Assembly: GCA_032128115.1 (NCBI GenBank) | Contig: JAQBHB010000093.1 | Span: 42,577 to 106,576 of the forward strand | DNA: 64,000 bases | Direction: 5' to 3' | Source: Deltaproteobacteria bacterium | GTDB lineage: Bacteria > Myxococcota_A > UBA9160 > SMWR01 | In this document: piece by piece, positions 1 through 59,003 of the stretch | Position numbering within the stretch: position 1 is the first letter of the stretch | Layout: every line of letters starts with the position of its first letter | Program-made: the position numbers and the translations under genes | The notes under the pieces: model-generated | What the model saw: the letters and a program-made list of their open reading frames with translations, nothing else | What the model was told of the DNA's origin: nothing | The model's database searches: none

Positions 1-628
1 TCTCGGGCGACACGAGTCCCGCCGACATCACCAGCTTGAAGGCGTCTTCCACGCTGATATCCACCTCGCGAATCTCGTCCTCGGGCACCAGCAGGAAGAA
101 ACCAGAGGTCGGGTTCGGGGTCGTGGGCAGGAAGCAGTTGATCGTGGGTCCGCCCGTGGCCGCTCGCACGGGGCCACGGGTCGGGCCCGTGGTGAAGGCC
201 AGAGCCCAGACGCCCTTGCGCGGGTACTCCACGAGCACCACTCGATTGAAGCGCGCCGTCTGGCTCGAGCGGAAGATCGCCTCGAACAGCTGCTTGACCC
301 CGTTGTAGATGTTTCGCGCCACGGGCACGCGCGACAGCAGTCGCTCCCCCATGCGCACCAGCTCGCCGCCGAACAGGTGGCGGGCCACCACGCCAAGCAG
401 GATGATCACCAGGAAGGTGAAGAGGGCTCCCACCAGGAACAGGCGCGGCGGGTCTTCGACCCCGGGCAGCAGCAGCCTCAGCAGGTGGGGCAGCAGCAGA
501 TCGTCGAGTTGGCGGATGATCCAGGCGGTGGCCCAGACCGTGACGCCGATGGGCGCAAAGACCAGCACTCCGGCGACGAAATAGCGTCGGATCGCTTCGA
601 GGATCCAGTTGAGCAGGCCGCGCAGCAT
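1..628 (-). CDS. DUF502-family membrane protein (3' end runs off the left edge of the window)
   Basis: Absent from the ORF track because it is truncated by the window edge. Manual reverse translation from the ATG at 628-626 gives MLRGLLNWILEAIRRYFVAGVLVFAPIGVTVWATAWIIRQLDDLLLP...RNIYNGVKQLFEAIF...VVLVEYPRKGVWALAFTT...TSGFFLLVPEDEIREVDISVEDAFKLVMSAG. This shows two N-terminal TM helices and the conserved DUF502 core pattern. Confidence 0.7.
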   Translation of the reverse strand, partial: MLRGLLNWILEAIRRYFVAGVLVFAPIGVTVWATAWIIRQLDDLLLPHLLRLLLPGVEDPPRLFLVGALFTFLVIILLGVVARHLFGGELVRMGERLLSRVPVARNIYNGVKQLFEAIFRSSQTARFNRVVLVEYPRKGVWALAFTTGPTRGPVRAATGGPTINCFLPTTPNPTSGFFLLVPEDEIREVDISVEDAFKLVMSAGLVSPE

Positions 629-633
629 GCGGT

Positions 634-762
634 CTAGAAGAGCGGGACTTCCCCGTCCGGCGCGTAGGCCGTGATCTCGCAGTCGAGCGGGATCACTTCG
701 AAGCTCGGGGGGGCGTAGCCCGAAGACTCGGGCCGCCGGTCTCGTGTGGACTCGTCGTTCAT
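634..762 (-). CDS. Unannotated 42-aa peptide ORF (MNDESTRDRRPESSGYAPPSFEVIPLDCEITAYAPDGEVPLF), PqqA-like core; candidate modified-peptide precursor
   Basis: Hand-translated and below the ORF-track length cutoff. ATG at 762-760, TAG at 636-634. 38 of 42 codons end in G/C, as expected for coding sequence in this genome. It lies 25 nt after the sulfotransferase stop and 5 nt before the DUF502 start on the same strand. IPLDCEITAY resembles the PqqA E-x3-Y core. Confidence 0.45.
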   Translation of the reverse strand: MNDESTRDRRPESSGYAPPSFEVIPLDCEITAYAPDGEVPLF

Positions 763-787
763 GGCGGCGATTCTAGCCCACCCGGCG

Positions 788-1801
788 TCAGCGCAACAGC
801 ACGTCGCAGGCCTGGCGGATGCGCCGGATCAGCCTTCCGAAGGCGTTGTGGTGGATGTTGCGACGCAAAACGATCAACAGCTTGCGTTCGAGCTTGTATC
901 GAGACAGACCGCCGGCTCTGGAGCGCGCCGCCCCGGTGTCGACGGCGGCCAGCTGGGCCTCCAACTCGTCGCGAGGGTAGCCCCAGGTCGAGAGGTCCTC
1001 ATCGCTGAGGCTCGCAAGGATGCGTTGAGCGCGTTCCACTGCGCCCGGGTTGCCGGCCATGTCCTGCTGCCAGCGCGAGATCGAAGCGGTGATGGGTCGC
1101 TTCTCGCGCGCCACGGTGATGGGGTCGCCCAGTCCGCGCACCGACCGGGCGGCGCCGGCATCGCTGCTGCCGTAATCCACCATTCCCGGCTCGAACTCGA
1201 GCCCGGCGAACTGACACAGCGTCCGCATCTGGGCGTCCGGCTCCGCGACCAGCTCCTCGTAGCGCACCTGGTGCACGGGGGCCGGGCGTTCGCGCAGGAA
1301 GCGCGCCATGGCCGGGACGTAGCGCTCGAGCAACGGGTTGTGATCGTGGGCGGCTTCGTGGTCGCCGTCGAAGAAGGACTGGACGAACGACGACCATATC
1401 GCCAATGGATTTCGCGTGAGCACCACGTAACGGGAGCGCGGATACAGCCGTGCCGCGAAGTCGAGGACCAATGCGTAGGCCGGAGTCTTGTCAAGCAGCA
1501 CGCGACGTCCGGATGCCTCGAGCAGACGCGAGTAGATGGCGTCCGTGTAGGCCCGAAGCGAGGCCAGGTAGTCCTGTTCTCCATCGGGCAGGGCGGCCAC
1601 CAGCTCTCGAATCGCCGCGCGGGTGATGATGGGATCGTACGGCGCCTGCTGGACGCTCTCGTAGTAGCCCAGGTGTGCCAGGGGCGTCAGCAGGTGAGGC
1701 TCGGGTGGAGAGGCCACGGCCGAGTGGGCGCCAAGCATCCGCGCCAGCAGGGTGGACCCGGACCGCGGCGGTCCGATGACGAAGAGGATCTGTTCGTCCA
1801 C
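788..1801 (-). CDS. Sulfotransferase family protein (PAPS-dependent, Sulfotransfer_3-like)
   Basis: The ORF 788..1936 contains the 5'-PSB P-loop GPPRSGSTLL near the N-terminus and a 3'-PB-like VVLTRNP motif. The likely true start is the in-frame GTG at 1801 (VDEQILFVIGPPRSGST), 8 nt after the upstream beta-glucosidase stop. The longer ORF would overlap that gene. Confidence 0.8.
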   Translation of the reverse strand: MDEQILFVIGPPRSGSTLLARMLGAHSAVASPPEPHLLTPLAHLGYYESVQQAPYDPIITRAAIRELVAALPDGEQDYLASLRAYTDAIYSRLLEASGRRVLLDKTPAYALVLDFAARLYPRSRYVVLTRNPLAIWSSFVQSFFDGDHEAAHDHNPLLERYVPAMARFLRERPAPVHQVRYEELVAEPDAQMRTLCQFAGLEFEPGMVDYGSSDAGAARSVRGLGDPITVAREKRPITASISRWQQDMAGNPGAVERAQRILASLSDEDLSTWGYPRDELEAQLAAVDTGAARSRAGGLSRYKLERKLLIVLRRNIHHNAFGRLIRRIRQACDVLLR

Positions 1802-1809
1802 GCCGGAGC

Positions 1810-3165
1810 TCAGCTGTCGAAGCCGTTTTCCGCCGCGACGCGCCCGTACCAGCGGCCCGACTCCTTGAGGGTCCGCTCGGTCCCGGGAAAGTCCACCCAG
1901 GCCAGCCCGAATCGTTGGCGGTAGCCCTCGGACCACTCGAAGTTGTCCAGCAGTGTCCAGGCGTGATAGCCGCGCACGTCCGCTCCGTCTGCGATGGCCC
2001 GGGCCACTGCAGCCAGGTAGCCGCGATAGAAATCGATGCGCCGGCTGTCGCGGATCGTTCCCGACGCGTCCGGGGCGTCCGCATACGAGCAGCCGTTCTC
2101 GGTGATCTCGATGACGGGCCGGTCGTAGTCGCGGGTGATGCGCTGGATCATGTCGTAGAGCGCGTCCGGCCAGACCTCCCAGCCGAAGTCGGTTTTCGGA
2201 CCCTCGTCGCCCCCCATGGGCCCCACGGCCTGGGCGCCCACGCCGTAGGGGTCGTCAGGATTCGCGGCCACCAGGGTGCGCGTGTAGAGATTGATCCCGA
2301 TGAAATCGAGCGGCGTGCGCAGCGACTCCAGGTCGCCGTCGCGCACTCCCATGCGGTCCAGGGGAACACCGTCCACGAAGGCGTCCGGGTAGCGACCGTT
2401 CAACGCCGTCTCCAGGTACCAGAGGTTCACGAGCGCGTGCCAGCGCTCGGCCGCGCTGGCGTCGGCCTCCGAGTCGCCGGCCGGCTCGCAGCTGGACATG
2501 CTGAAGGCGGTTCCAATCACCGCGTCCCCGCGCACGGAGCGCATGGCCCGGAAGGCCTCGGCCTGGGCCCGGTTCACCGTGTGGCTGGCGCGCAGGAAGG
2601 CATCCAGGTCCCGGCGCCCGGGCGCGTGGATGCCGGCCAGGTAGCCCATGACCGTGAAGATCGTGGGCTCGTTGAAGATCATCCAGTTCTCGACCCGGTC
2701 GCCCAGGGCCCTGACCACGGTCTCGGCGTAATCGGCAAAGTGCCCGGCCATGTCGCGTTCAGGCCAGCCGCCGCGATCCTCCAGGGGCTGGGGCAGGTCC
2801 CAGTGATAAAGAGTGGGAAAGGGGCGGATCCCCGCCCCGAGCAGTTCGTCCACCAGGCGGCTGTAGTAGTCGATTCCCTTGGCGTTGACCGCGCCCGATC
2901 CGGTGGGGAGGATGCGGGGCCAGGAGATCGAGAACCGATAGCTGTTGAGGTTCATCTCCTTCATCAGGGAGATGTCGTCGTCGTAGCGGTGGTAGGAATC
3001 ACAGGCCACGTCGCCCGTGTCGCCGTTCTCGACCCGGCCCGGGGTGTGGGTGAAGCGATCCCAGATCGACTCGCCCTTGCCGTCGTCCCGCCAGGCTCCC
3101 TCGATCTGGTAGGAAGCCGTGGCCGTGCCCCAGTGGAAGCCTTCGGGAAAGCGTACCCGCGTCAT
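1810..3165 (-). CDS. GH1 beta-glucosidase
   Basis: 451 aa. FPEGFHWGTATASYQIEGA N-terminus, acid/base MIFNEP and nucleophile ITENG motifs, YRFSISWPRI. This is a textbook glycoside hydrolase family 1 protein. Confidence 0.95.
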   Translation of the reverse strand: MTRVRFPEGFHWGTATASYQIEGAWRDDGKGESIWDRFTHTPGRVENGDTGDVACDSYHRYDDDISLMKEMNLNSYRFSISWPRILPTGSGAVNAKGIDYYSRLVDELLGAGIRPFPTLYHWDLPQPLEDRGGWPERDMAGHFADYAETVVRALGDRVENWMIFNEPTIFTVMGYLAGIHAPGRRDLDAFLRASHTVNRAQAEAFRAMRSVRGDAVIGTAFSMSSCEPAGDSEADASAAERWHALVNLWYLETALNGRYPDAFVDGVPLDRMGVRDGDLESLRTPLDFIGINLYTRTLVAANPDDPYGVGAQAVGPMGGDEGPKTDFGWEVWPDALYDMIQRITRDYDRPVIEITENGCSYADAPDASGTIRDSRRIDFYRGYLAAVARAIADGADVRGYHAWTLLDNFEWSEGYRQRFGLAWVDFPGTERTLKESGRWYGRVAAENGFDS

Positions 3166-3272
3166 CTGTCACCTCTCCTCTGGCGGCGCCGAGGAAATCA
3201 TCATACTCGCCGGCGCGGGCCCGGGCTCCCAGGGGGCTCCCATTTCTGTAGCTTCGCGGGTCAGGTGTTGCG

Positions 3273-4352
3273 GTGAGCGGGGAGCAGAAGCGCCGAAGCG
3301 AGCGGGCCAAGGGCCTGGCCCTGGCCCTGGGCTTCGACCTGGCCGGCGTGGCCCGCGCACTTCCCACTCCCGAAACCGAGTTCCTGCGCGATTGGTTGGC
3401 GCGCGGCTATGCAGGCGAGATGGGTTATCTGGCCCGACGGGTCGACGAGCGGGTGGATCCGCGTCGCGTTCTCGAAGGGGCTCGCAGCGTGGTGGCGGTG
3501 GGTCTCGTTTACGACCCGGGACCCCGCGATCCGACCCGCCCGGGGGAGGGCGACGTGGCTCGCTACGCCGGGGGCGAGGACTACCACGACGTGATGGGCG
3601 ATCGCCTGCGCGCCCTGGAATCGGGCCTCGAGGCCCTCGTGCCCGAGCCGGTCCGGACCCGCAGCTATGTGGACACCGGCCCGGTCCAGGAACGGGTCTT
3701 CGCGGCCCATGCCGGACTGGGATGGATCGGCAAGAACACGTGCCTGATCCATCCAGCTCTGGGGTCGTACGTGTTCCTCGGCGTGGTGCTCACCGACCTG
3801 GAGATGGAGCCTGACGCCCGCGAACCGGACCACTGCGGCAGCTGCCGCGCCTGCCTCGACGCGTGTCCGACCGATGCGTTTGCCGCGCCCCATGTGCTCG
3901 ATGCCACCCGCTGCATCTCGTACACCACGATCGAAGCGCGGGGGGCCATCGATCCGGCGCTTCGGTCGGGGCAGGGCGACCGGGTGTTCGGCTGCGACGT
4001 GTGTCAGGAAGTGTGCCCCTGGAACCTGCGCGAACGCCGCCAGGTGCCACCCGATACCCAGGGGCTGCGCCGGAGGCTGCGGCCGCGTCCCGAGTGGGTG
4101 CGGCCCTCCTTGCGCTGGATCCTGGAGCTTTCGGAAGAAGAATGGCGGGGCGCTACGCACGCCACGGCCGTGGGCCGTGCTCGCTTCCGCGGCCTGATGC
4201 GCAATGCCCTGGTGGCCGCCGGCAACTCGGGCGATGGGAAGCTCGCAGACTCCATCCGCCGCCATGTCCAGGGAGGCGACCCGTTGCTGGAAGAGCACGC
4301 GCGTTGGGCACTCGATCGGCTTGGCGAGGTCGCGGAGGGTCGACCCGACTGA
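3273..4352 (+). CDS. queG: Epoxyqueuosine reductase
   Basis: 359 aa. It has two 4Fe-4S ferredoxin-type motifs (CGSCRACLDACP and CDVCQEVCPWN), CISYTTIE, and a HEAT-like C-terminus, typical of QueG. Confidence 0.9.
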   Translation: MSGEQKRRSERAKGLALALGFDLAGVARALPTPETEFLRDWLARGYAGEMGYLARRVDERVDPRRVLEGARSVVAVGLVYDPGPRDPTRPGEGDVARYAGGEDYHDVMGDRLRALESGLEALVPEPVRTRSYVDTGPVQERVFAAHAGLGWIGKNTCLIHPALGSYVFLGVVLTDLEMEPDAREPDHCGSCRACLDACPTDAFAAPHVLDATRCISYTTIEARGAIDPALRSGQGDRVFGCDVCQEVCPWNLRERRQVPPDTQGLRRRLRPRPEWVRPSLRWILELSEEEWRGATHATAVGRARFRGLMRNALVAAGNSGDGKLADSIRRHVQGGDPLLEEHARWALDRLGEVAEGRPD

Positions 4353-48350: not shown

Positions 48351-49838
48351 CTAGTCCGACCGGGTGGGCTCGCCCTCGCCAGGCTGTGCCGTGTCGGAGG
48401 TTCCCGGTTCCGGAGCGTCCACGTATCCCAGGGCCTGCAGGGCATCGAGATCGTCGGAGGAGAGCTGTTGGGGAGTCTCGTCCCGCAGCTCCAGGCCCTT
48501 GCGCAGGATCATCAGGCGCTTGCGCAACGAGGAGGCGATCTCGGGAGCCGGGGCTACCAGATTCACCGTCTCCTTCCCCCTTCGGAAGAGCTGGCCGTGT
48601 CCCACGGTGCCTTCCAGGGAGACGATGAACTTGTAGTCCCCGTCCACTACGGCGAATCGACGCACGGCGCCCGCGCCCAGCGTCGCCATGTACGGGACGC
48701 TGTTCTCCGCATCGGCGCCCAGCGCCAGCACGTCCCGACCGCGGGGCGACCCCTCGGGCATCACGCCCAACAGGGAAAGCACCGTGGGGTAGAGGTCCAC
48801 GGCCGACACCAGGTCGTCGCGCCGCGCGGGACGCAGCTCCGGGGAGCGCACCATCAGGGGGACCCGCACGAAGGCATCCATCAGGTGCTCGCCGTGGGAG
48901 AACCAGTAGTCGCCCTCGCCCAGGGCTTCGCCGTGATCGGCCGAGAACACCACGAGGGCGTTGCGGTCGAGCCCGCGCTCACGCAGGCCGTCGAGCAGGC
49001 GCCCGACCTCCCGATCCATATAGGCCACCTCGGCGGCGTAGCCCGCGCGGTAGAAGGCGATCTCATGCTGGCCGTCCAGATACTGGTATCGGGGGATGGC
49101 GCCACGCCCGCTGTCCCCCGTCCCCTGCAGGGGGAGGCGTCGCAGGCCGCCCTCGACCCCGCGCTCGCGCGCAAGCTGAGAGTCGCGGGAGCCCGCCGGC
49201 GGGGTGTATGGCCCGTGCGGATCCTGGTAGTGCACCCAGACGAAGCAGGGCGTCGCCCGGCCATCGGTGCAGGCATCCAGCGTACCCAGGAAGGCGTCGG
49301 TCGTGTCGACCGCGACGCGTTCCGGCCAGCGGCGCACCGCTTCACGTTGGGGGAAGTCGTCGTCGTAGACGTCGAATCCGGCCGCGAGTCCCGACGAGGC
49401 CCGCAGTACGAAGTTGCTGACGACCGCGGCGGTTCGCCAGCCGTGTTGCCGCAGGCTGGCCGCCAGCGAGGGCACGTCTGCCGGAACCGCCGACTCGTTG
49501 TTGATGAGACCCAACTCTTCGGGATAACGCCCGGTGAGCAGAGCGCTGATGGAGGGGAGGGTGAGCGACGTGGCGGAGTATGCGGCTGTGAAGACGACGC
49601 TCTCGTCCGCCAGGGCGTCCAGATTCGGCGTCAGACCGCGGTCGCTTCCGTAGGCGCCCAGGTAGTCGGCGCGCAGGGTATCCACCGTGATCAGGACGAA
49701 CAGGCGAGGCGCGGGCGGACTGCAGCCCGTCCCCGCGGCGGTCAGGGTGATGGCCGGAAACACGGCGACGAGAAGGGTCGCGACCACCCGCGCCAACGCG
49801 ACCAGGGCCGGCTTCCGGGGGGTCCGCGGGCGCCTCAT
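48351..49838 (-). CDS. Sulfatase-fold (alkaline-phosphatase superfamily) lipoprotein with Thr in the nucleophile position
   Basis: It has a signal/lipobox region (LTAAGTGC), metal-site ITVDTLRAD and SATSLTLPSISALLTGRYP. The last aligns with CxPSR of true sulfatases but reads T-L-P-S-I. HGEALGE lies later in the sequence. The start was chosen at 49838. Confidence 0.75.
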   Translation of the reverse strand: MRRPRTPRKPALVALARVVATLLVAVFPAITLTAAGTGCSPPAPRLFVLITVDTLRADYLGAYGSDRGLTPNLDALADESVVFTAAYSATSLTLPSISALLTGRYPEELGLINNESAVPADVPSLAASLRQHGWRTAAVVSNFVLRASSGLAAGFDVYDDDFPQREAVRRWPERVAVDTTDAFLGTLDACTDGRATPCFVWVHYQDPHGPYTPPAGSRDSQLARERGVEGGLRRLPLQGTGDSGRGAIPRYQYLDGQHEIAFYRAGYAAEVAYMDREVGRLLDGLRERGLDRNALVVFSADHGEALGEGDYWFSHGEHLMDAFVRVPLMVRSPELRPARRDDLVSAVDLYPTVLSLLGVMPEGSPRGRDVLALGADAENSVPYMATLGAGAVRRFAVVDGDYKFIVSLEGTVGHGQLFRRGKETVNLVAPAPEIASSLRKRLMILRKGLELRDETPQQLSSDDLDALQALGYVDAPEPGTSDTAQPGEGEPTRSD

Positions 49839-49981
49839 GGAGATCGGAAACGTAGCACGCCGCCGGCCCGGGGCGGCTGTGGGGCTGCCCGCATTGCCCG
49901 CTGCGCGGGCGTGTGCGATGGTGGTCTGCCGCCGAATCCCACCATGTTTCTTCGCACCTCGCGCCATCCGGAACCCGCCCG

Positions 49982-51604
49982 ATGACGGACCCGATCGGCG
50001 CCCTGCCTCGCGGCGCGCTCACCGCCGTCCTGGTCGCTGCCAGCGTGCTCTTCGTCGCGTTGCGAGCGCCCTACTGGTCGGTTCCCCTGGAGCGCGACGA
50101 GGGCGAGTACGCCTACGTGGCACAGCGCATGCTGCAGGGCGAGGTTCCGTACCGCGACGCTTTCGACCAGAAGCCGCCTGGCGTTTTCCTGGTCTACGCC
50201 GCGGCGTTCGTCGCGTTCGGCGAGTCGATCGAATCCATCCATGGAATGATGCACCTCTTCAGTGCGGCCACCGCCCTGGTGTTGTGGTTGCTGGTGCGTC
50301 GCCTGGCGGGAGACGCCGCTAGCGCCTTTTCGGTACTGGCTTTCGCCGTGATGTCCACCGACTCGCGGATCGTGGCCACGGCGGCCAACACCGAGATCTT
50401 CATGCTGTTGCCCCTCTCGCTCTGCATGCTTGCACTGGTGCGAGCGCTGGAGGACGGTCGGGCGCGCTGGTGGCTGGCGTGCGGTGCGTTCGCGCTGGGC
50501 GCGTGCTGGATCAAGCAGGTGGCGGCGGTCAACACGGTGTTCGTGGGCCTGTTCGCGGTGGGAAGTCTGGTCCGGCGGCGAGCCGGGGCCAGGCGTGTGC
50601 TTCGCGCGGTCGCTCTCATGCTGGCCGGCGGTGCTGTGGTCTCACTGCCGCTCGCGGCGTACTTCGCGTGGCATGGAGCCTGGGCGGAGTTCGTGGATGC
50701 GGTATTCCTGCACAATCTGGCGTACAGCCAACGCATGTCGTGGGCGGCCGGATGTCGCAACGCCTGGATCGCCCTGGGACACCAGGCCCCGAGCCTTGCC
50801 GTCTTCTGGATCCTGACGCTCGCGGCGATCGTCTGGCCGCGCGCGGCGCCGCGCGAGATCCGGATCCTGCTGGCGGGGTGGACCGTGGCCTCCCTGCTGG
50901 GGGTGTCGATCGGGCTGTATTTCCGGCCCCATTACTTCATCCAGATGCTGCCGCCGCTGGCCGCCGCCGCGGGCGTGGCGGCCGGGGCAGTGGTGGGGGC
51001 CCTTCCGGCCCAACGGGCCCTGGTGCGAGGCGCGGTCGTGGCGGCTGCGATCGGAGTGCTTGGCGCGCCCGCCGTGGTGGCCAACTGGGCAACCCTGACT
51101 GCCGGGTCCCCCAACGCCGTGTCGCGCAGGATCTACGGACTGAACCCCTTCCCCGAGTCCCTGGAGATCGCCAAGTACATCCGGCGCACCAGTTCCCCGG
51201 ACGATTCGATCTACGTGATGGGATCCGAGCCCCAGATCTTCTTCTACGCCGAGCGCCGGAGCGCTACCCGTTACATCTTCTTCTATCCGTTGATGGGGGC
51301 ATTTCCCGACGCGGGCCAGCGACAGCGGGAATTGATTCGCGAGGTCCAGGCCGCGAATCCACGCTATGTGGTGGTTGCCAACCTTTCCACGTCGCTGATG
51401 GCGAACTCCAACACGGATCCCTACGTGTTCGACGAGACGAGGCGCTGGCTCGCGCGCCACTACCGGCTCGAATTCGTGGCGATTCCCCAGGCCGGGAAAC
51501 GCGAATTCGATTTCATCTACGGGAGCGGCGCTCGCGCAGCCATGGGCGATTCGGACGCTCGAGCGGCGCCCCGGGCCTGGGTCGCGGTCTTCCGGCGCTC
51601 CTGA
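49982..51604 (+). CDS. GT-C fold membrane glycosyltransferase (ArnT/PMT-like, GT39/GT83-type)
   Basis: About 540 aa. It has a first-loop acidic motif ERDEGEYAYVAQRMLQGEVPYRDAFDQKPPG, roughly 11 TM helices and a soluble C-terminal domain. Confidence 0.65.
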   Translation: MTDPIGALPRGALTAVLVAASVLFVALRAPYWSVPLERDEGEYAYVAQRMLQGEVPYRDAFDQKPPGVFLVYAAAFVAFGESIESIHGMMHLFSAATALVLWLLVRRLAGDAASAFSVLAFAVMSTDSRIVATAANTEIFMLLPLSLCMLALVRALEDGRARWWLACGAFALGACWIKQVAAVNTVFVGLFAVGSLVRRRAGARRVLRAVALMLAGGAVVSLPLAAYFAWHGAWAEFVDAVFLHNLAYSQRMSWAAGCRNAWIALGHQAPSLAVFWILTLAAIVWPRAAPREIRILLAGWTVASLLGVSIGLYFRPHYFIQMLPPLAAAAGVAAGAVVGALPAQRALVRGAVVAAAIGVLGAPAVVANWATLTAGSPNAVSRRIYGLNPFPESLEIAKYIRRTSSPDDSIYVMGSEPQIFFYAERRSATRYIFFYPLMGAFPDAGQRQRELIREVQAANPRYVVVANLSTSLMANSNTDPYVFDETRRWLARHYRLEFVAIPQAGKREFDFIYGSGARAAMGDSDARAAPRAWVAVFRRS

Positions 51605-51690
51605 GGATCCGCGGCCGGTATGCGATAAGCTCGGCACGGCAGTTTCACGGCCCCCCGTTTGCGGACGGGCCCGCCACAGGAGGGATTCCA

Positions 51691-52473
51691 ATGAACCGCA
51701 TCACTTCGGGACTTCTCGTCGTGTCCATGGCGCTCCTCGCCAGCGCCTGCGTGGTGATCGAGGATGGCGAGGTCGGTGTATCCAAGAGCTTCGGATCCAT
51801 CCGCGACGAGCCGGTGGGTCAGGGCATCGTGATCCAGGTGCCGGTGATCCGGACCGTGGAAACCTGGGACGTCAAGCTTCAGGAGCTGAAGGAGACGGCG
51901 CAGGTGCCGTCGTCCGAGGGCCTCATCGTCGGCCTGGATACCTCCATGTTGTTCCAGGTGCAGCCCGAAATGGCGCCGAGTATCCGCAAGACGGTGGGGT
52001 GGAACTACGTGAACACCCTGATCGTGCCCTATTTCCGCAACGCCGTGCGCGACGTGGTGAGTGGATATCCGGTGCGGAACATCTACGGCGAGGAGGGCCG
52101 CAAGGAGATCGCCCGCAAGGTGCGTGAGTTCCTGATCGAGAACCTGGAGCCCCGCGGCATCATCGTGGTGGACGTGCTCCTGCGCGACGTGAAGCTCCCG
52201 GAGAAGTTCAAGGATTCGATCGAGGCCAAGCTGACCGCCCAGCAAGTGGTGGCCCAGAAGCAGTTCGAGCTCGAGCAGGCCAAGAAGGACGCCGAGATCG
52301 AGGTGGCCCGGGCGAAGGGCGCCGCCGAGGCCCAGGAAATCGTGCGCTCGACCCTGAGCGACTCGTATCTGCAGTACCTGTGGATCAAGACCCTGAACGA
52401 GAATCCCAACGTGATCTACGTGGCCACCGAGGCCAACATGCCGATCTTCAAGAATGCGGCCGGGAGACGCTGA
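51691..52473 (+). CDS. SPFH/Band-7 (prohibitin-type) lipoprotein
   Basis: It has an AGGAGGG SD, and MNRITSGLLVVSMALLASAC carries a lipobox. An SPFH core and a coiled AQQVVAQKQFELEQAKKDAEIEVARAKGAAEAQ segment follow. Confidence 0.85.
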   Translation: MNRITSGLLVVSMALLASACVVIEDGEVGVSKSFGSIRDEPVGQGIVIQVPVIRTVETWDVKLQELKETAQVPSSEGLIVGLDTSMLFQVQPEMAPSIRKTVGWNYVNTLIVPYFRNAVRDVVSGYPVRNIYGEEGRKEIARKVREFLIENLEPRGIIVVDVLLRDVKLPEKFKDSIEAKLTAQQVVAQKQFELEQAKKDAEIEVARAKGAAEAQEIVRSTLSDSYLQYLWIKTLNENPNVIYVATEANMPIFKNAAGRR

Positions 52474-52476
52474 GCT

Positions 52477-53853
52477 TCAACGCCGGCGCATGCGATAGAC
52501 GACGCGTTCCGACCCGACCAGGGGTGTGGCGTCCTCCAGCGTGAAGCGCGTCGCGAACGCGGCCTCGAAGCCATTGCGGCTGTAGTCGGGAAACACGTCC
52601 TCGCGGGTCGCCAGCATGGTCTGGACCCTGGGATCGCTCTTGGGCACGAACTCGACGATCAGACCCTCGGCCAGATCGGCGAAAAAACTGGCCACCTGGG
52701 GCAGGGGCACGTTGTTTCCGATGGCCAGGTGGTGCACCAGGGCCAGGGCCAGCAGCGCGTCGGCGCTCGCGCGATCCGCGAGCGAGGCGCGCTCCGCGTG
52801 GGCCCAGCCCAGCGCCGGACTGGGGTTGGTGAGATCCAGGACCAGCGGCAGCAGCTTCGACTCGCCGGTGTCGCGAGCGCGCCGGTAGCTGCGGTCGATG
52901 CAGGCCGGATCCTTGTCAAAGGAAATGGTCTGGATGCCGCGCTCGGAGGCGATTCGACTGAACTCGCCGGTGTTTGCGCCCAGGTCCCAGACCCGGCCCG
53001 GCGCCAGCGTGTCCAGGTGCTGGGACACGAGTCGTTGCTTGTGCTCGTGGGATGCCGGGGCGTAGCTGACACCCGCTGCGTAGTCGGCCCACTCGGTGCC
53101 GTCTGCGCGCCAACGGAGCCTCTTCACCGCAGACTCGAGCGCGCGGATCAGGTTTGCGTGGGCGGACTTCGAGAGCGGGCGCACCTTGGCGGCGGCGTCC
53201 GTGTCGGACCGGTAGCGCTGCTGGTATCCCGCGTGCATCCGGATGTGAAGGAACAGGTGCACGTTCAGCCAGGCCCGGGCTGGAAGCAGGCTTCGCGCCA
53301 GGTCGAGCGGGATTCCGTCCAGGTGGACGCGCAGCAGGCTCGAGAGTCTCACGTCCCGATACGCCATGAGCGCCAGGGGCGCCAGGAAGTGCTGGCAGAA
53401 CTGCCGGTACCCGACCCACGGAGACCCCTCCCGGTAGCGCTCGAAGGAGAGCGTGTCGATCCACAGCGGTCGGCCCCGGTGGAACTGCACGTTGTAGGCG
53501 CTGGCATCCTTGAGGGTCATATCGAAGCGCAGCGCCAGCTGTTGCACCTGCAGGGTGGCCAGTGCAGCATCCTGAAGCTGGCTGAACGACCACTCGTAGG
53601 GGTACGACACGAAATCCACGCGCTCGGGTCGCAGGATGCGGTGGGCTTCGCCCCGGGAGGCGGGCTCCCCTCGGGCTTCTTCGTGGGGGATCAGGAGATT
53701 TCGTTCCGTGAGCTCCCGGTACAGGCCGGATTCGACCAGGTGGTCGTAGTCGGGGGCGTATCGGGGGTTCACCTGGCGGTGAAGGATCCCGTCCCGCTCG
53801 AAGACGAAGCCGCTGGGGTCTCGGAAGGAGGAGCCGAGGGGCTCGTCAGCCAT
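52477..53853 (-). CDS. Two-domain protein: N-terminal protein-kinase-like fold + C-terminal class I SAM methyltransferase
   Basis: The N-terminal half has a Brenner-like LKDASAYN (D-x4-N) followed by LWIDTLSFE. The C-terminal half has MTase motif I VWDLGANTGEFS and post-I ISFDKD. The ATG at 53853 overlaps the upstream small ORF stop by 8 nt; the longest ORF start is 53868. Confidence 0.6.
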   Translation of the reverse strand: MADEPLGSSFRDPSGFVFERDGILHRQVNPRYAPDYDHLVESGLYRELTERNLLIPHEEARGEPASRGEAHRILRPERVDFVSYPYEWSFSQLQDAALATLQVQQLALRFDMTLKDASAYNVQFHRGRPLWIDTLSFERYREGSPWVGYRQFCQHFLAPLALMAYRDVRLSSLLRVHLDGIPLDLARSLLPARAWLNVHLFLHIRMHAGYQQRYRSDTDAAAKVRPLSKSAHANLIRALESAVKRLRWRADGTEWADYAAGVSYAPASHEHKQRLVSQHLDTLAPGRVWDLGANTGEFSRIASERGIQTISFDKDPACIDRSYRRARDTGESKLLPLVLDLTNPSPALGWAHAERASLADRASADALLALALVHHLAIGNNVPLPQVASFFADLAEGLIVEFVPKSDPRVQTMLATREDVFPDYSRNGFEAAFATRFTLEDATPLVGSERVVYRMRRR

Positions 53854-54133
53854 CGTTGCGACGTGCACCCTTCTCGTCGTGGGAGGCTCTCTCGTCGTGG
53901 GCGGGCATCTGGGCGGGTCGGAAGAACTTCACGATCCTCTTCCAGTACGCGTTGAGGGCCACCACCGCGCCCGCGATCATCGCCACCAGGGCCTGCAGGA
54001 TGAAGCTCCCCGCGCCAGGATCCACATAGGCGAGGCGGAGCGCGGTTGCATCCAGTGTTGCAGCCGAGGCGGCGAGCCCCGTGGATGCCACCAGGGCCAG
54101 GGCGAGGACCAGAGGGCGTCGGCAGCGCGGCAT
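53846..54133 (-). CDS. Small membrane protein (95 aa), signal/anchor + one TM, YVDPGAGSFILQ motif
   Basis: MPRCRRPLVLALALVASTGLAASAA, then YVDPGAGSFILQALVAMIAGAVVAL, then a basic tail. It appears translationally coupled to the downstream methyltransferase gene. Confidence 0.45.
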   Translation of the reverse strand: MPRCRRPLVLALALVASTGLAASAATLDATALRLAYVDPGAGSFILQALVAMIAGAVVALNAYWKRIVKFFRPAQMPAHDERASHDEKGARRNDG

Positions 54134-54234
54134 GGAGTTCCTCGGATGGGTCGCGAATGCCCCCGTGGGCCCCATTGTGCCATTCTCCCCATCCCGCTTT
54201 CAACCGCGGCGCGCGGCGGGGGGTAGGGTTGTGG

Positions 54235-56100
54235 GTGCCATTGGACGCCGAAGCCACCTCCCACGGCGACCCGGTCCGCCGGGCGATCGATGTGCTCGGC
54301 CCCCTCGGCCTGGTGGCGCTGTTCGCAGCGCTGGCAGCCTGGAGCTGGGGCAAGTGGACCGATGTCCAGATCGATTTCGGTACCGAACTCTACCTGCCGT
54401 GGCGGATCAGCCTGGGCGATGCCCTCTATCGCGATCTCGCATCGCGCAATGGGCCCCTGTCTCATCATCTGAACGCGCTGTGGTTCCTGCTCTTCGGGGT
54501 CTCGTTGCGGACGCTGGTGTTCGCCAACCTCGCGATTCTCGCGGCGATCTCCGCCATGACCTGGGCGATCTTCCGAAGCGCTTGCGGTGCGGCGACCGCG
54601 ACCGGGGTGTGCGCCGTCCTGCTGACCGTTTTTGGCTTCTCCCAGTATGTGGCCATCGGCAATTACAACTATGTGACGCCCTATCAGCACGCCCAGACCC
54701 ACGGTCTGGCGTTGTCGATCGCGATGCTGCTGGCCCTGGCCCGGTACCTTCGGAGCCGTCGCCTCGGGTGGATGGCACTCGCCGGGGCGTGTCTCGGTCT
54801 GGTGCTTCTCACCAAGGCGGAGATCGCGGTGGCCGCGGTTTCGGCTGCCGTGGTGGGCGGGGTGTGCGTCGGCGTGTCGGAGCCGCGCGATCCGAAGCGG
54901 TGGGCGAAGCTCGCGCTCGCGTTCGCCGGCGCTGCCTGCGTTCCTCCGCTGCTTGCTTTTGCCTGGCTCGCGGCGTGCATGCCGCCGGACATGGCCCGCG
55001 TCGGCGTTCTCGGTAACTGGGCCTACCTGGACGTCGACCTGGTGAGGGATCATTTCTACGTGCACGGCGCGGGCTTCGATCGGCTGGGTGCGAACCTGGC
55101 GCGGGCGCTGGGCATGGGTCTCGCGATCGGCGCACTTCCAGCGGCGGCGTGGGCCGTGGAGCGCACCGCACCACCCGGTCGCTGGCGGACTCCGGCCGCG
55201 CTGGTCGCGGCAGGTCTCGGCTACGGCATCCTGGCGGCCCCGGGGGTGGTGCCCTGGCTGCAGGTGCCTCGGGGCCTGCCCGTCACGACACTTGCCATCG
55301 GCACCGCGGTGGCCTCGATCTGTTGGCAACGGCGAGGCGACCGGGAAGCCGTGGCGCAGTGGGGGCCGCTGGTGCTGTGGTCGGTCTTCGCCCTGGTGCT
55401 GCTGGGCAAGATGATCCTGCGCGCCCGCATCCACCAATACGGTTTCGCGCTGGCGATGCCCGCGACCCTGCTGCTGGTGGCGGCCCTGGTCCGCCTGCTT
55501 CCCGCCTGGTCCCGCGCGCGCTTGCGCGGCGGCTTGTTCAGTCTGGCGCTGGGACTCGCGGGGGTGGCGGCGGGGGTTGGTTTCTACCTGCAGCGATCGA
55601 ACGACTTCTACGCGCACAAGGACTTCGCGGTGGGAAGCGGCGGCGATCGCCTCCTGGTAGAGCCGGCGCCGGTGAACGCCCGCGGGCCGCGGGTGGCCGA
55701 GACGCTTGCGCGCCTGGGGGAGGTCGCCCCGGTCGGCTCGAGTCTTCTGGTTCTGCCTGAGGGGCTGATCCTCAACTATTGGCTTCGACTTGAAAATCCA
55801 GCCCGGTATGGTCTCTTTCTTCCAACCGAAATCGCTGCCGCGGGGGGCGGCGTCGCCATGTTGGATGACGTGCGCGCGGCCGCCCCCGACACCATCGTGT
55901 TGATGCACCGGGATCTCGCCGAGTTCGGGACACCGGCGTTCGGAAAAGCGTTGAGCAGTGGCCTCGAAATATTCGAGTGGGTGCAGGCCCACTACGAACG
56001 CACGCTGCTCATCGGCCCGCCGCCGTTCGGCGATAGCTTCGGCATCGAGATCCTCCGCCGCCGCGCGGGCTCGGGCGGACCTTCCTCAGGGCTCGACTGA
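54235..56100 (+). CDS. GT-C-like polytopic membrane glycosyltransferase (ArnT/PMT-like)
   Basis: About 620 aa. It has a first-loop acidic segment DVQIDFGTELYLPWRISLGDALYRD, 12 or more TM helices and a C-terminal soluble domain. The start is uncertain (GTG 54235 or TTG 54241). Confidence 0.5.
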   Translation: MPLDAEATSHGDPVRRAIDVLGPLGLVALFAALAAWSWGKWTDVQIDFGTELYLPWRISLGDALYRDLASRNGPLSHHLNALWFLLFGVSLRTLVFANLAILAAISAMTWAIFRSACGAATATGVCAVLLTVFGFSQYVAIGNYNYVTPYQHAQTHGLALSIAMLLALARYLRSRRLGWMALAGACLGLVLLTKAEIAVAAVSAAVVGGVCVGVSEPRDPKRWAKLALAFAGAACVPPLLAFAWLAACMPPDMARVGVLGNWAYLDVDLVRDHFYVHGAGFDRLGANLARALGMGLAIGALPAAAWAVERTAPPGRWRTPAALVAAGLGYGILAAPGVVPWLQVPRGLPVTTLAIGTAVASICWQRRGDREAVAQWGPLVLWSVFALVLLGKMILRARIHQYGFALAMPATLLLVAALVRLLPAWSRARLRGGLFSLALGLAGVAAGVGFYLQRSNDFYAHKDFAVGSGGDRLLVEPAPVNARGPRVAETLARLGEVAPVGSSLLVLPEGLILNYWLRLENPARYGLFLPTEIAAAGGGVAMLDDVRAAAPDTIVLMHRDLAEFGTPAFGKALSSGLEIFEWVQAHYERTLLIGPPPFGDSFGIEILRRRAGSGGPSSGLD

Positions 56101-57489
56101 CGCCGCGTTCCGGTAGAGCGCCCAGTGGAATCCGGAGATCGCGGCGTGCGGGAACTCCGCCACCAGCGTGTAGAGGTGGCCCCGATCGTCGCGGATGCTC
56201 TCCGGCACCCGGGCCGGGTTCTCGAGCGCATGCCGGATCACCCATTCGGGTCCTCCCGGCGGCCGCTGCTCGGCCGTGCGGTAGTCCAGACGTCGGTTCG
56301 CCGGGAGCTCGCGCGCGTAGAAGCGCAGAACCGTTCCGTTTCGGAAGTCGTGGTCACTCGAGACCACGATCGCGGGCGAATCCGTCTCCCGCGCCATCCG
56401 CAACAGCGCCTCGCGATACCCGCCGCGCCCGTACTCGAGGAAGCCCCGGATGTGGACGGCGTTGCCCGCCAGGAAACCCGCCAGGAGCACCAGACTCGCG
56501 ATTCGCCGCGCCCCTCCCCGCCGGTACAGGTCGCCAAGCAGGAAGGCCGAGAGCAGCAGCAACAAAGCGAGCGAGATCAGGAAGTAGCGGACGGCCACCA
56601 CCTCGGGTCGCAGGCTGAGCATCACCGCGACGGGCGCGATCCCGATGGCGATCGCGTACAGGATCCAGCTGTCGTCGCGCTGGCGTCGCAGCTGGCGGAT
56701 CCCGAGCGCGAGAAGGCTCGCTCCCAGGCAGGCGTACGCGAAGCCCAGGTCGCGGCTCACCCGAAGCCCCAGGCCGAAGCCGAACGTGCGCGCCAGGACC
56801 TGGTCGGCGACTGCGGGAGGGCCTCCGCCCACGGTCATCGTGTGCAGGTCGACGGCGTACAGCGCCGCCAACCCCACCAGCGGCAGGACGTGGAGCGCGG
56901 CCAGGGCCCTCACGGCGCCGGGGCGTTGCCCCAGTTGTCGCCACGACCAGACCACCGCACCCGCGTAGAAGAAGCCGAAGGCCAGGTGCGACAGGAATCC
57001 CAGAAGGGCGCTGACCGCGAACAGGGCGCGGCACCCGGGCCGGTCGCGTTCGAGGGCCCAGAGGCAGATCAGCGCGAAGAACACAGCGTACGCGTAACCG
57101 CGTGCCTCGGAGGAGAAATGCACCAGGGCGAACGACCCGGCCGCGAGCCAGGCCGCGAATACCGCCTCCGGGCGGCCCTTCCGCCAGGCGATGGCCGCCG
57201 CCAGGCCCACGCTGGCCACGCCGGCCGCGAACGCGGGCACCCGGTACCACCACCAGTCCACATGCTCGCCCAGGGCGTAGTAGATCAGGGTGTTCAGATG
57301 GTGGTTGTTCGACTGGTGGATCCGCGTGAACACCTGCAGCGGCGAGTCCAACATGCGCATGCTGGACCAGGTCCAGATCTCGTCCAGCCAGAAGTCGCCG
57401 AAGACCGGGGGCCATCGCACCGCGGCAGCAACCGCCACCGCGGCGAGGCAAAGCGCCAGGGCGAGCCGCGACCGGGTTGTTTCGCTCAC
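56086..57489 (-). CDS. GT-C fold membrane glycosyltransferase (GT39/83-like)
   Basis: 467 aa. FWLDEIWTW acidic loop-1 motif, roughly 10 TM helices and a ~110-aa C-terminal soluble domain. Its start overlaps the stop of the upstream paralogue by 4 nt. Confidence 0.6.
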   Translation of the reverse strand: MSETTRSRLALALCLAAVAVAAAVRWPPVFGDFWLDEIWTWSSMRMLDSPLQVFTRIHQSNNHHLNTLIYYALGEHVDWWWYRVPAFAAGVASVGLAAAIAWRKGRPEAVFAAWLAAGSFALVHFSSEARGYAYAVFFALICLWALERDRPGCRALFAVSALLGFLSHLAFGFFYAGAVVWSWRQLGQRPGAVRALAALHVLPLVGLAALYAVDLHTMTVGGGPPAVADQVLARTFGFGLGLRVSRDLGFAYACLGASLLALGIRQLRRQRDDSWILYAIAIGIAPVAVMLSLRPEVVAVRYFLISLALLLLLSAFLLGDLYRRGGARRIASLVLLAGFLAGNAVHIRGFLEYGRGGYREALLRMARETDSPAIVVSSDHDFRNGTVLRFYARELPANRRLDYRTAEQRPPGGPEWVIRHALENPARVPESIRDDRGHLYTLVAEFPHAAISGFHWALYRNAASVEP

Positions 57490-59003
57490 CGCCGCCTCTC
57501 ATGGATCACCACGCCCTCGTAATCGCTCACACTTTCGAAGTGGTGGATCCGGATGTCCTCGCGGTTGCCCCAGGCGATGTCCGGAGCCGCGAGGACGTGG
57601 CGGTCGTAGACGTCGGGAGACAGGGATTCCAGCAGGATCTGTCGCACCCGTCTCTCCTCCCGGGTGTGGGCGTGGCGGCGCAGGATCAACCACTCGGCGT
57701 TCGCGGCCGGCGTGAGATCTTCTCCGGTGAGACCGCCCACGACCCGGAGATCGGTGTAGAACTTCACGGGGAGATCGCCATAGGTGATCGCCAGCGTATC
57801 GCCGGGCCGCGCGTGTTGGCGCAGGAATTCGACGATCCCCTCGATGGGACCGTCGTAGTCGTGGCTGAGCTCGTGGAGATAGGGAAACAGATTGCCGCAG
57901 ACGGCCACCCAGAGGACGATCAGCGCAGCGCCCAGGAGCCGCGAGCGGCGGATCACGGCGCCCACTGCAAGCCCCGCCAGCAACAGAAGAGGCGGCGCCA
58001 GGGGTGCCAGGTAGCGCACGTAGGCGCCCGGGCTGGTGAGTGACAGGGCGGCCACGGTGACACCGCAGTAGAGCACCAGCAGCCACACGCCGCTTCGGGT
58101 GGCGCCGTCGGGGCCAGCTGCAGGTCTGCGGGCGATGGCGCGCCAGAGCAGGATTCCTGGCGGCACCAACAGGAACAGCGGGTGCAGGAAATCCGAGAGC
58201 GCGAGGCGCAGGTAGCGTCGCGCGTAGCGCAACGAACTGGCCGGATCCAGCAGGCGATCCGCGTAGTTCGCATGGTAGTTCCCGCTCCCGAACCACACGA
58301 TCCAGGGCGCGTTGACCGCTGCGGTGGCGATCGCCGCGATCAGCGTATCCCTGAATCGGCTGCGCTCGAAAATCGCAGCGTGGATCAGCAGGGCTGCAAG
58401 TGTAGTCGCCGCGTACAGGTAGTGGCTGTGGAAGAGCAGGGTGGCGGCGATCCCCAACAGGACGATCGGCTTGCGCGAGCCCGGCGTCAAACGCGTGTAG
58501 GCGTGCAGGGCCAGCAGCGAGAAGAAGGCCGCCGCCAGATACCAGCGAGACTGTCGGGCCAGGAGCAGGAAGGGCACGCAGAGCGCCAACAGGATCGCCG
58601 CGGCCAGCGCCGAGCCGCGGTCGCGCCACAGGGCCAGGCCCGTGAAATACGTGAGCAGCACGCTGGCGATGCCCAGGAGCGCGAAGGGCAGTCGCGCCGC
58701 ACCGGCGCTCTCTCCGAACAGGGCGAACGACGACGCCACCAGATAGAAGGACAACCACGGATGCCACTTCCAGATGCCGTCGTCGCCGTACTCCGCCCCG
58801 AGTTCCTGGGAGAAGGAGTTGCGGCCATCGCTGCCCAGGGGAATTCCGTTCTCCAGGGTCGAGCGTGCCAGGAGTGCCGTCTGGGCCTCGTCCTGCCACA
58901 GGTAGCGGTTGCCCAGACCGGGGAGCAGGAGCGCCGCCGCCAGCAGCAGCAACAGCATCACTTGGATTGGTTCGACGCCTCGAAGGGCCTGGCTGAGACG
59001 CAA
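57486..59003 (-). CDS. GT-C fold membrane glycosyltransferase (GT39/83-like)
   Basis: 505 aa. LWQDEAQTALLARSTLENGIP acidic loop-1 motif, roughly 11 TM helices and a C-terminal soluble domain. It has a TTG start at 59003, with an alternative ATG at 58958. Confidence 0.65.
   Translation of the reverse strand: MRLSQALRGVEPIQVMLLLLLAAALLLPGLGNRYLWQDEAQTALLARSTLENGIPLGSDGRNSFSQELGAEYGDDGIWKWHPWLSFYLVASSFALFGESAGAARLPFALLGIASVLLTYFTGLALWRDRGSALAAAILLALCVPFLLLARQSRWYLAAAFFSLLALHAYTRLTPGSRKPIVLLGIAATLLFHSHYLYAATTLAALLIHAAIFERSRFRDTLIAAIATAAVNAPWIVWFGSGNYHANYADRLLDPASSLRYARRYLRLALSDFLHPLFLLVPPGILLWRAIARRPAAGPDGATRSGVWLLVLYCGVTVAALSLTSPGAYVRYLAPLAPPLLLLAGLAVGAVIRRSRLLGAALIVLWVAVCGNLFPYLHELSHDYDGPIEGIVEFLRQHARPGDTLAITYGDLPVKFYTDLRVVGGLTGEDLTPAANAEWLILRRHAHTREERRVRQILLESLSPDVYDRHVLAAPDIAWGNREDIRIHHFESVSDYEGVVIHERRR

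Follow-up and report, generated by a model that had tools for sequence, protein, structure and literature searches.

The question raised by this locus is what is encoded by a small open reading frame (ORF) that lies, without annotation, between a sulfotransferase gene and a DUF502 gene at one end of the window, by which we mean the whole stretch of DNA analysed here (64 kb, part of a 241.6-kb contig). The initial annotation had offered two alternatives, an orphan PqqA-like peptide or the substrate of the adjacent sulfotransferase. The first is supported by the family profile, the hhalign comparison and the C-terminal tail, and the second is not supported, given the lack of consistent co-occurrence. 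The 42-aa ORF was found as described at 634..762 on the reverse strand, with the ATG at 762..760 and the TAG at 636..634, and its translation is MNDESTRDRRPESSGYAPPSFEVIPLDCEITAYAPDGEVPLF. The high G/C content at third codon positions was also found, although the exact count was 37 of 42 codons instead of the 38 given before. On its upstream side, a Sulfotransfer_3 gene of 337 aa with a GTG start (788..1801, reverse strand; PF13469, E 5e-35) has its stop codon at 788..790, which leaves 25 nt to the ATG of the ORF, and on its downstream side only 5 nt separate the TAG from the ATG (628) of the gene for a DUF502 membrane protein (1..628, reverse strand; PF04367, E 1.5e-32). The latter runs off the window, and in locus L001 its product has 231 aa. 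A GH1 beta-glucosidase gene (1810..3165, reverse strand; PF00232, E 1e-160; TIGR03356) is the syntenic upstream neighbour. Both gaps and the common strand of all these genes agree with the earlier description.

In this work, the ORF was found to be a real, strongly conserved gene under strong selection at the amino-acid level. A word search returned 128 small homologues, a profile search of 1.84 billion proteins gave 111, and over 200 small proteins of uncultured Myxococcota-like bacteria have a common C-terminal block of the form [W/Y]-x-x-P-x-F-E-V-I-x-L-x-C-E-I-[T/S]-[A/S]-Y-A-P-D...P-L-F. All nucleotide variation at the invariant amino-acid columns is synonymous, and the Ser column is encoded by both TCN and AGC codons. 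Conservation in relatives, which the initial annotation had left to be checked, is thus evident, since the frame is intact in all 94 distinct loci and no frame-breaking change was seen among them. Furthermore, conservation is near 100% in the tail and in the Phe21-Pro35 block, compared with 41–80% identity for the neighbouring proteins. An RNA element was dropped as an explanation, because an Rfam scan of positions 1..3400 gave no match at the ORF. The idea of a small folded protein was likewise rejected, because AlphaFold2 with the family alignment predicted no secondary structure and no autonomous fold for the window peptide (pTM 0.20). When the family profile was searched against PDB sequences, the matches were all spurious and fell on Strep-tag II (WSHPQFE) fusions, and nothing specific on an orphan PqqA-like family in Myxococcota was found in the literature.

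On sequence grounds, the family is homologous to PqqA, as judged from its W/Y-x-x-P start, its E-x3-Y, which never varies, and a tail like that of Sinorhizobium (YAP-DG-acidic-P-(I)LF). The E-x3-Y core that had been noticed before is present in this small peptide as E29-I-T-A-Y33. Glu29 (codon GAG, 676..678, reverse strand) and Tyr33 (codon TAC, 664..666, reverse strand), four residues further on, are invariant throughout the family in both family alignments (A1 and A2) and also in the operon-linked PqqAs (alignment A3), and the two residues are the predicted donor and acceptor of a Glu-Tyr C-C cross-link. The residues cross-linked by PqqE in PqqA are Glu16 and Tyr20 (PMC10906245). Glu29 and Tyr33 lie, with the PqqA-like spacing, in the block F21-P35 (FEVIPLDCEITAYAP; 658..702, reverse strand), the columns of which are invariant or at least 90% conserved in A1 and which corresponds to the body of the PqqA model. 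Two YAP motifs had been proposed, and of these the second (Y33-A-P) is invariant, whereas the first (Y16-A-P) is not kept as such. Across the family, W or Y stands at its position, with variable residues after it, and Y16-A-P-P-S (703..717, reverse strand) with the invariant Pro19 matches the W-x-x-P start of PqqA, in which W and P are invariant at the same spacing (A3) and the columns of which are paired with it by hhalign. In canonical systems this start is the PqqD-binding part of PqqA. The C-terminal tail APDGEVPLF (A34-F42; 637..663, reverse strand) has nearly invariant A-P-D and P-L-F in the family and is shared with the PqqA of Sinorhizobium meliloti (...YAPADGDEPILF). On the other hand, residues 2–15 (718..759, reverse strand) form a hypervariable N-terminal extension, which is unconserved apart from a loosely kept M-x-[ND]-[DE] at the start and has a length of 15 to about 45 residues in the family.

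The evidence from hidden Markov models needs to be read at the level of the family. The window peptide itself matched neither PF08042 nor TIGR02107, even at E<=10, so the check proposed for it failed. This counts against its being a pqqA product, as does the fact that no family member reached the curated TIGR02107 cutoff of 20 bits. The empty scan of the single peptide gained meaning only when all of the family was scanned as well. TIGR02107 was then the sole NCBIfam model matched by family members (25 of 58, all sub-threshold). The best score, 19.9 bits for P0119 against the cutoff of 20, extended over the full model, which aligned end to end (model positions 1–21) over the equivalent segment WERPAFEVIPLDCEITAYAPA, and the remaining scored members reached 13.3–13.6 bits, above the 12.7 bits of P0215, a PqqA encoded in a pqq operon. 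The low score of this operon-encoded peptide means that the curated cutoff (20 bits, 21-position model) misses true members and excludes true relatives, some of them operon-encoded. Profile homology to peptides of pqqABCDE operons was obtained in two further ways. The family profile retrieved P0228, P0215 and P0226 as weak matches, each inside a pqqB-C-D-E cluster (3/3 with long enough contigs), and hhalign of the family (A1) against eight independent operon-linked PqqAs from annotated plasmids (A3) gave a probability of 92.1% (E 6.3e-7). A homologue search with P0215 found 3 proteins only. Moreover, when 7.3 Gb of plasmids were searched by tblastn with the family consensus, 67 of the 69 matches fell on the pqqA locus of Sinorhizobium meliloti pSymB, whose product has the same tail as the family (…CAMEITRYAPADGDEPILF). 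The peptide is therefore a PqqA homologue, and its gene is probably an unannotated, stand-alone PqqA precursor gene.

The pSymB peptide (MAWHKPKFIEVSCAMEITRYAPADGDEPILF), annotated as ‘pyrroloquinoline quinone precursor peptide PqqA’, has the W/Y-x-x-P-x-F start of the window peptide, an E-I-T-x-Y core at equal spacing, and an end in Y-A-P-(A)-D-G-acidic-P-(I)-L-F. The differences are that it has 31 aa and no N-extension, whereas the window peptide has a variable one of 15 residues, that Met stands before Glu in place of Cys, and that its gene lies immediately upstream of pqqBCDE, while the window gene is unlinked from pqq genes. The three operon-linked peptides of metagenomic contigs share the core, with Cys before Glu and the pattern L/V-x-C-E-[IV]-x-x-Y. 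In addition, P0226 has A-Y-A-P and P0215 has a long N-extension as in the window family. Unlike the window gene, they adjoin pqqB-C-D-E, ahead of pqqB or, in L109, behind pqqE, and they come from low-GC lineages and have no P-L-F end. The canonical short PqqA of the Rahnella, Burkholderia and Acinetobacter type (23–24 aa; TIGR02107/PF08042) has W/Y, P, E and Y invariant at a spacing identical to that of the window family, with an hhalign probability of 92%. Both are small ribosomal peptides, and the window peptide is, like the canonical kind, predicted to be unstructured. However, canonical PqqA starts with M-(x)-W, ends 3–4 residues after Tyr and is encoded in pqqABCDE(F), whereas the window peptide fails the curated cutoffs.

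The neighbouring genes were compared across loci. Both flanks were available at 44 distinct loci. Of these, 22 have the sulfotransferase gene upstream of the peptide and 19 have DUF502, and the two occur independently of each other (9/13/10/12 table), with the peptide core unchanged either way, so a consistent co-occurrence, which the initial annotation had proposed to test, was not found. It had been proposed that the peptide is a Tyr-sulfated RiPP, like RaxX/RaxST of Xanthomonas, and the substrate of the adjacent PAPS-type enzyme. The likeness to that system is limited to a small Tyr-containing ORF beside a sulfotransferase gene, which directly precedes the ORF in the window and at roughly half of the related loci. 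Acidic residues close to Tyr33 and a weak similarity of the enzyme to tyrosylprotein sulfotransferases (TPST1/2, E about 1e-5) would also fit the proposal. This proposal is highly improbable, because the same peptide core is found where the enzyme is missing, in 22 of the 44 loci, and in a whole second syntenic context (context B), from which the enzyme is absent. In the L012 inversion, moreover, the sulfotransferase stays with GH1 and the peptide with DUF502. The best solved relative of the enzyme is the polyketide sulfotransferase CurM (E 1e-21), to which it is much nearer than to tyrosylprotein sulfotransferases, and among NCBIfam models it is most similar to that of the carbohydrate sulfotransferase NoeE (114 bits). 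About half of the family has Trp in place of Tyr16, so this Tyr is not a conserved target in acidic context, and Rax-type export or peptidase genes (peptidase-ABC exporter) appear in none of the context tables. A small ORF beside a tailoring enzyme is evidence for a substrate only if the pair co-occurs across relatives. Thus, the sulfotransferase is a neighbour and not an obligate partner, and together with GH1 and DUF502 it is a syntenic neighbour with no required role.

The position of DUF502 brings up another explanation, in which the ORF would control DUF502 translation in cis as a leader or arrest peptide. It would fit an invariant peptide whose ORF ends, in the window, 5 nt ahead of DUF502, the joint inversion of both in L012, and the fact that DUF502 is the commonest directly downstream gene (37 loci, median gap 55 nt). 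We regard it as very improbable, because 25 of the 44 loci do not have DUF502, the gap ranges between 5 and about 60 nt, and the conservation is accounted for by homology to PqqA. The next gene in the loci without DUF502 is unrelated or convergent, namely cvpA (opposite strand), Pterin_4a, Amidohydro_2 (opposite strand), a 231-aa unknown or a PQQ-repeat propeller. It is extremely improbable that the peptide is a precursor of another RRE-dependent RiPP class, such as a lasso peptide, although by eye Y16-x-x-P19-x-F21 and T31-A32 fit Y-x-x-P-x-[L/F]...T-x, a motif that resembles lasso leaders. Lasso precursors have a cyclase and B1/B2 genes nearby, and their core, about 13 residues or longer, carries Asp or Glu at position 7–9. 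No cyclase, B1/B2 or any RiPP enzyme was present in any context, YAPDGEVPLF, which would be the core, is too short with 10 residues and has acidic residues at positions 4 and 6 and none at 7–9, and no NCBIfam lasso model matched. The lasso and arrest-peptide explanations were both rejected on gene context.

The claim that the ORF, the sulfotransferase gene and DUF502 form one operon is weakened by a promoter-like element directly before the peptide ATG. A conserved extended -10 element (TGnTAnnnn) 6–8 nt before the ATG is a new observation made here. TAnnnn occurs at this distance in 70 of 92 distinct loci, and 57 of those 70 also have the extended -10 TGn, while the background rate in this DNA is 0.78% of its ATGs. 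In the window, the predicted -10 hexamer is TAGAAT (770..775, reverse strand), 7 nt upstream of the ATG. The element was recognised only by comparison between loci, and a generic sigma-70 scan passed it over owing to the poor -35. Judged from the motif, an extended -10 so close to the start codon would mean that the gene is transcribed separately into a leaderless mRNA.

In canonical systems, pqqA normally adjoins pqqB, C, D and E, a feature which is usual and not universal. The earlier statement that neither pqqBCDE nor a radical-SAM gene is present in the window is confirmed, since tblastn (E<=1) detected no pqqB/C/D/E homologue in the 64 kb, and no radical-SAM domain or pqq gene was recognised by Pfam in the large ORFs scanned. 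The search with two PqqB-E sets was extended to 106 loci, with flanks of up to 10 kb on either side of each family locus (823 kb including the window, of which about 760 kb are related flanks), and no pqqB-E was detected there either. The gene thus stands apart from pqqBCDE at every locus seen, and the 94 distinct loci without pqqB, C, D or E nearby weigh against its being pqqA. An Rv1681-like radical-SAM gene was noted near the peptide in two loci only (L078 and L105), on the opposite strand.

On this basis, a peptide derived from PqqA might no longer feed PQQ synthesis, in a clade without pqqBCDE, and might be matured by unrelated distant enzymes into another product or act as an unmodified small binding peptide. 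This is unlikely, although it would agree with the 94 loci in which pqqBCDE is never adjacent, the fixed core-genome position with its own promoter, the scores below the curated PqqA cutoffs, and the near-complete conservation of the Phe21-Pro35 block and the tail relative to the neighbours. Against it, all invariant features are those required of PqqA (W/Y-x-x-P, E-x3-Y), the seemingly special tail is also found in the Sinorhizobium PqqA from a pqqABCDE operon, no alternative maturase recurs, and there are proven PQQ producers with an unlinked pqqA. Quite unlikely is a more specific form, in which the clade has no pqqBCDE at all and has kept the peptide at a fixed core-genome site, with a leaderless promoter and a near-invariant 20-residue block, for maturation by unrecognised unlinked enzymes into a PQQ-like or different cofactor, or as an unmodified ligand. 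The peptide might then have as its partner the DUF502 membrane protein, often encoded next door, or the beta-propeller with PQQ repeats (PF01011, E 1.3e-26) whose gene comes next in L022 and L099. The propeller scores far below the cutoffs of true PQQ-dehydrogenase models and resembles BamB equally, so it was not confirmed as a true quinoprotein. Should pqqBCDE prove to be missing from these genomes, the family would offer a rare example of a precursor peptide for a cofactor that has taken on a different role.

We hypothesize that the ORF is this organism's pqqA and probably encodes the ribosomally made precursor peptide of pyrroloquinoline quinone (PQQ). Its own promoter would give the leaderless mRNA of a pqqA-type gene, and a high output would suit a precursor of which one molecule is consumed per cofactor. 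The W/Y-x-x-P-x-F segment would be held by the PqqD chaperone, the radical-SAM enzyme PqqE, encoded elsewhere, would link Glu29 to Tyr33, and proteases, PqqB and PqqC would then free and oxidise the Glu-Tyr pair to PQQ. The invariant Glu and Tyr, the lack of a predicted fold and the PQQ-repeat propeller gene that follows the ORF in L022 and L099 would all fit this hypothesis. The extended -10 at leaderless distance thereby offers a testable picture of a stoichiometrically consumed precursor that is expressed apart from its enzymes. In Methylosinus trichosporium OB3b, pqqA was found at a locus separate from pqqBCDE, where it had been missed by automatic annotation, and it has its own transcript and is highly expressed (PMC3615186). 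An unlinked and initially unannotated pqqA would thus be common to this bacterium and the window clade, although M. trichosporium OB3b is a proven PQQ producer in which pqqBCDE and pqqFG are identified, whereas no pqqBCDE was found in the locus regions searched for the clade. A whole clade of uncultured Myxococcota-like bacteria has a pqqA-type gene that is overlooked by the curated cutoffs and left blank or ‘hypothetical’ in annotation, so that metabolic reconstructions would score the clade as having no PQQ precursor.

The 42-aa ORF at complement(634..762), with the product MNDESTRDRRPESSGYAPPSFEVIPLDCEITAYAPDGEVPLF, lies in a row of minus-strand genes that begins with a GH1 beta-glucosidase gene (1810..3165) and continues through a Sulfotransfer_3 gene (788..1801; PF13469, E 5e-35) and the ORF to a DUF502 gene (..628; PF04367, E 1.5e-32). 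Translation and coordinates confirmed the position and spacing given in the initial annotation, with 25 nt between the sulfotransferase stop and the ORF's ATG and 5 nt between its TAG and the DUF502 ATG. The recount of codons with G or C in the third position gave 37 of 42 instead of 38, a bias to be expected, at a genomic G+C of 68%, of any gene read in its correct frame. The ORF is a real, conserved gene, and the proposed check for conservation in relatives was positive. A word-indexed search found 128 homologous small proteins of 26-72 aa, and 1.84 billion representatives searched with a profile yielded 111 homologues at E<=0.001. Behind a hypervariable N-terminus, all members share the C-terminal block [W/Y]-x-x-P-x-F-E-V-I-x-L-x-C-E-I-[T/S]-[A/S]-Y-A-P-D-(2-6 residues)-P-L-F. 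The two contig scans looked for IPLDCEIT and LxCEIS[AS]YAP, which by itself accounts for part of the invariance of these columns in the DNA obtained; the profile search (111 hits), free of any such pattern, likewise has L, C, E, and Y invariant. The frame is intact in 94 of 94 distinct loci for which DNA was obtained, and all nucleotide differences in fixed amino-acid columns are synonymous (CCG/CCC/CCT, CTC/CTG/TTG, TGC/TGT, GAG/GAA, ATC/ATT, TAC/TAT, GCN). At the Ser column, TCN codons occur as well as AGC. Thus, selection acts on the peptide and not on the RNA, and an Rfam scan of the ORF region matched no family. AlphaFold2 predicted no secondary structure for the peptide (pLDDT 70, pTM 0.20). 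The host MAGs are labelled mostly as Myxococcota, Myxococcaceae or 'delta proteobacterium'. In four longer predicted proteins of 49-120 aa (P0151, P0158, P0161, and P0224), the family motif is joined to unrelated sequence; P0161, for instance, starts like a tRNA-thiolation enzyme. Errors of gene calling or assembly probably created these chimeras.

By its sequence, the family is homologous to PqqA, the precursor peptide of the redox cofactor PQQ. The likeness first noted for the window peptide holds at the family level, whereas for the peptide alone a cutoff as loose as E<=10 gave no Pfam or NCBIfam match. In an NCBIfam scan of 58 members, TIGR02107 (PqqA) was the sole model matched, by 25 members with a best E of 5e-4, and PF08042 was matched by 7 members of the same set. 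One member, P0119, aligned to the full 21-position TIGR02107 model with 19.9 bits against a cutoff of 20, and other scored members reached 13.3-13.6 bits, which is above the 12.7 bits of P0215, a PqqA encoded directly upstream of pqqB-pqqC-pqqD-pqqE. P0215 likewise shares the long variable N-terminal extension of the family. The weakest matches of the family profile resemble ordinary PqqA, and all three on long enough contigs belong to pqq clusters, where P0228 and P0215 precede pqqB and P0226 follows pqqE by 10 nt. The cluster at L109:331-3510 has the order pqqB-C-D-E-A, with the precursor gene after pqqE (10-nt gap) and not before pqqB. Furthermore, an independent set of five annotated and three unannotated PqqAs from pqq operons of annotated plasmids was aligned, in which W, P, E, and Y are invariant. 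Its comparison with the family by hhalign gave 92.1% probability and E 6.3e-7, with W/Y, P, E, and Y paired in register. The 'YAP...PLF' tail also matches that of Sinorhizobium meliloti PqqA (MAWHKPKFIEVSCAMEITRYAPADGDEPILF), so it is not special to the family and already exists in a bona fide operon-encoded PqqA. Of the 69 matches that tblastn of the family consensus gave in 7.3 Gb of plasmids, 67 are the pqqA locus of Sinorhizobium. The annotated pqqC of a plasmid from Methylocella tundrae (NZ_LR536451.1; L110:2459-3223) is isolated, without pqqB, pqqD or pqqE beside it.

The other reading offered was that the peptide is a sulfated RiPP, modified by the adjacent PAPS-type sulfotransferase. 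There are two main syntenic settings of the gene. In context A, the order is queG, divergent from GH1, then an optional sulfotransferase, the peptide, an optional DUF502, Pterin_4a or Amidohydro_2 gene, and a convergent cvpA. In context B, the peptide gene stands between a divergent MshEN/T2SSE ATPase gene and a gene for a 231-aa protein without a family match. In the 44 distinct loci whose flanks are long enough on either side, sulfotransferase and DUF502 are both present in 9, sulfotransferase alone in 13, DUF502 alone in 10, and neither in 12. The occurrence of one gene is thus independent of the other, and of the peptide, whose core is unchanged whichever of them is present. Moreover, an in-place inversion in L012-L014 has turned the peptide and DUF502 together and left the sulfotransferase beside GH1. 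The sulfotransferase matches the CurM polyketide sulfotransferase (E 1e-21) far more strongly than tyrosylprotein sulfotransferases (E about 1e-5), and a partial NoeE-like match was also obtained. The upstream 'YAP' Tyr is replaced by Trp in many members. Taken together, the presence of the sulfotransferase in 22 of the 44 loci, the inversion, the CurM likeness, and the Tyr to Trp change do not support sulfation by the neighbouring enzyme. That the peptide serves as a leader for DUF502, present in 19/44 loci, is unlikely for the same reason of independent assortment. Several further features of these neighbourhoods were observed. The inverted pair (L012:10001-10933, also L013 and L014) is reversed relative to GH1-sulfotransferase and cvpA, with the other synteny retained. 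A Peptidase_M50 and CBS-domain gene separates sulfotransferase and peptide in two loci (L004:8335-9990; L017, between 2684 and 3889). A conserved single protein of 1271-1284 aa, a fusion of FGGY kinase N/C, 2-hydroxyacid dehydrogenase, SCP2, and class II aldolase domains, is encoded a few genes downstream in context A (L001:10321-14136, also L002, L005, L006, L007, and L012). The 231-259 aa protein of context B (L009:8719-9414, homologues in L015 and L023-L026) starts with a signal-peptide-like segment and matches nothing in Pfam or NCBIfam. In L078 (10455-11396) and L105 (2165-3462), a Pterin_4a dehydratase gene downstream of the peptide is followed, on the opposite strand, by a radical-SAM gene of Rv1681-like type, which is confined to these two loci.

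Of 92 distinct loci, 70 have a TAnnnn hexamer 6-8 nt ahead of the ATG, and in 57 of them a preceding TGn makes it an extended -10 element (TGCTATAAG, TGCTAGAAT, TGCTATCCC, and similar), against a background rate of 0.78% when every ATG of this DNA is counted. The copy in the window reads TAGAAT (775..770, minus strand) and falls in the 25 nt that separate the sulfotransferase stop from the ATG (763-787); context B has an additional TTGAGG -35 at 16-18 nt. With this spacing, transcription would begin at the ATG itself or no more than about 2 nt away, so we infer a leaderless mRNA from the gene's own promoter, which would explain the missing Shine-Dalgarno sequence. Some sublineages have GGAGG 5-8 nt upstream of the ATG instead. 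It may be that the clade uses leaderless mRNAs generally and that the conserved TGnTAnnnn so close to the ATG is a reflection of this.

The initial annotation had reported no pqqBCDE or radical-SAM gene in the window. In agreement, tblastn with two PqqB-E sets found no pqqB-E near the peptide in 823 kb, made up of the window and 106 loci with at most 10 kb of flank on either side, and Pfam scans of twenty large window ORFs found no quinoprotein, radical-SAM or pqq gene. On two short contigs (L022 and L099), a PQQ-repeat beta-propeller gene follows the peptide by 59 nt (PF01011, E 1.3e-26); it is far below true quinoprotein cutoffs and equally like BamB, and is only a hint of a link to PQQ. An unlinked pqqA has a precedent in Methylosinus trichosporium OB3b, where the gene was at first unannotated and is highly expressed (PMC3615186). 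It is fairly probable that these genomes contain pqqBCDE and the gene is an ordinary but unannotated pqqA. That they are without pqqBCDE, and the PqqA-derived peptide has gained another fate, is rather improbable. As an unlinked pqqA, and following the established PQQ pathway (PMC10906245), its product would be held at the W/Y-x-x-P-x-F segment by PqqD, PqqE would abstract hydrogen from Glu29 and link this Glu to Tyr33 four residues on, and proteolysis, PqqB, and PqqC would then lead to PQQ, with PqqD, PqqE, and the other maturation enzymes encoded elsewhere in the genome. The analysis itself showed the PqqA homology, the invariant Glu29 and Tyr33, the independent promoter-like element, and the lack of linked maturases. 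Two findings are of use outside this locus: a whole lineage is missed by curated PqqA cutoffs, and the precursor gene has a conserved promoter of its own, of the predicted leaderless type. Elsewhere in the window, three PMT_2-type glycosyltransferase genes (49913-51604, 54046-56100, and 57486-59003) are clustered with an STT3/AglB-like oligosaccharyltransferase (59105-61489) and a sulfatase (48351-49967), and this region (48351-61489) looks like a bacterial protein-glycosylation locus.
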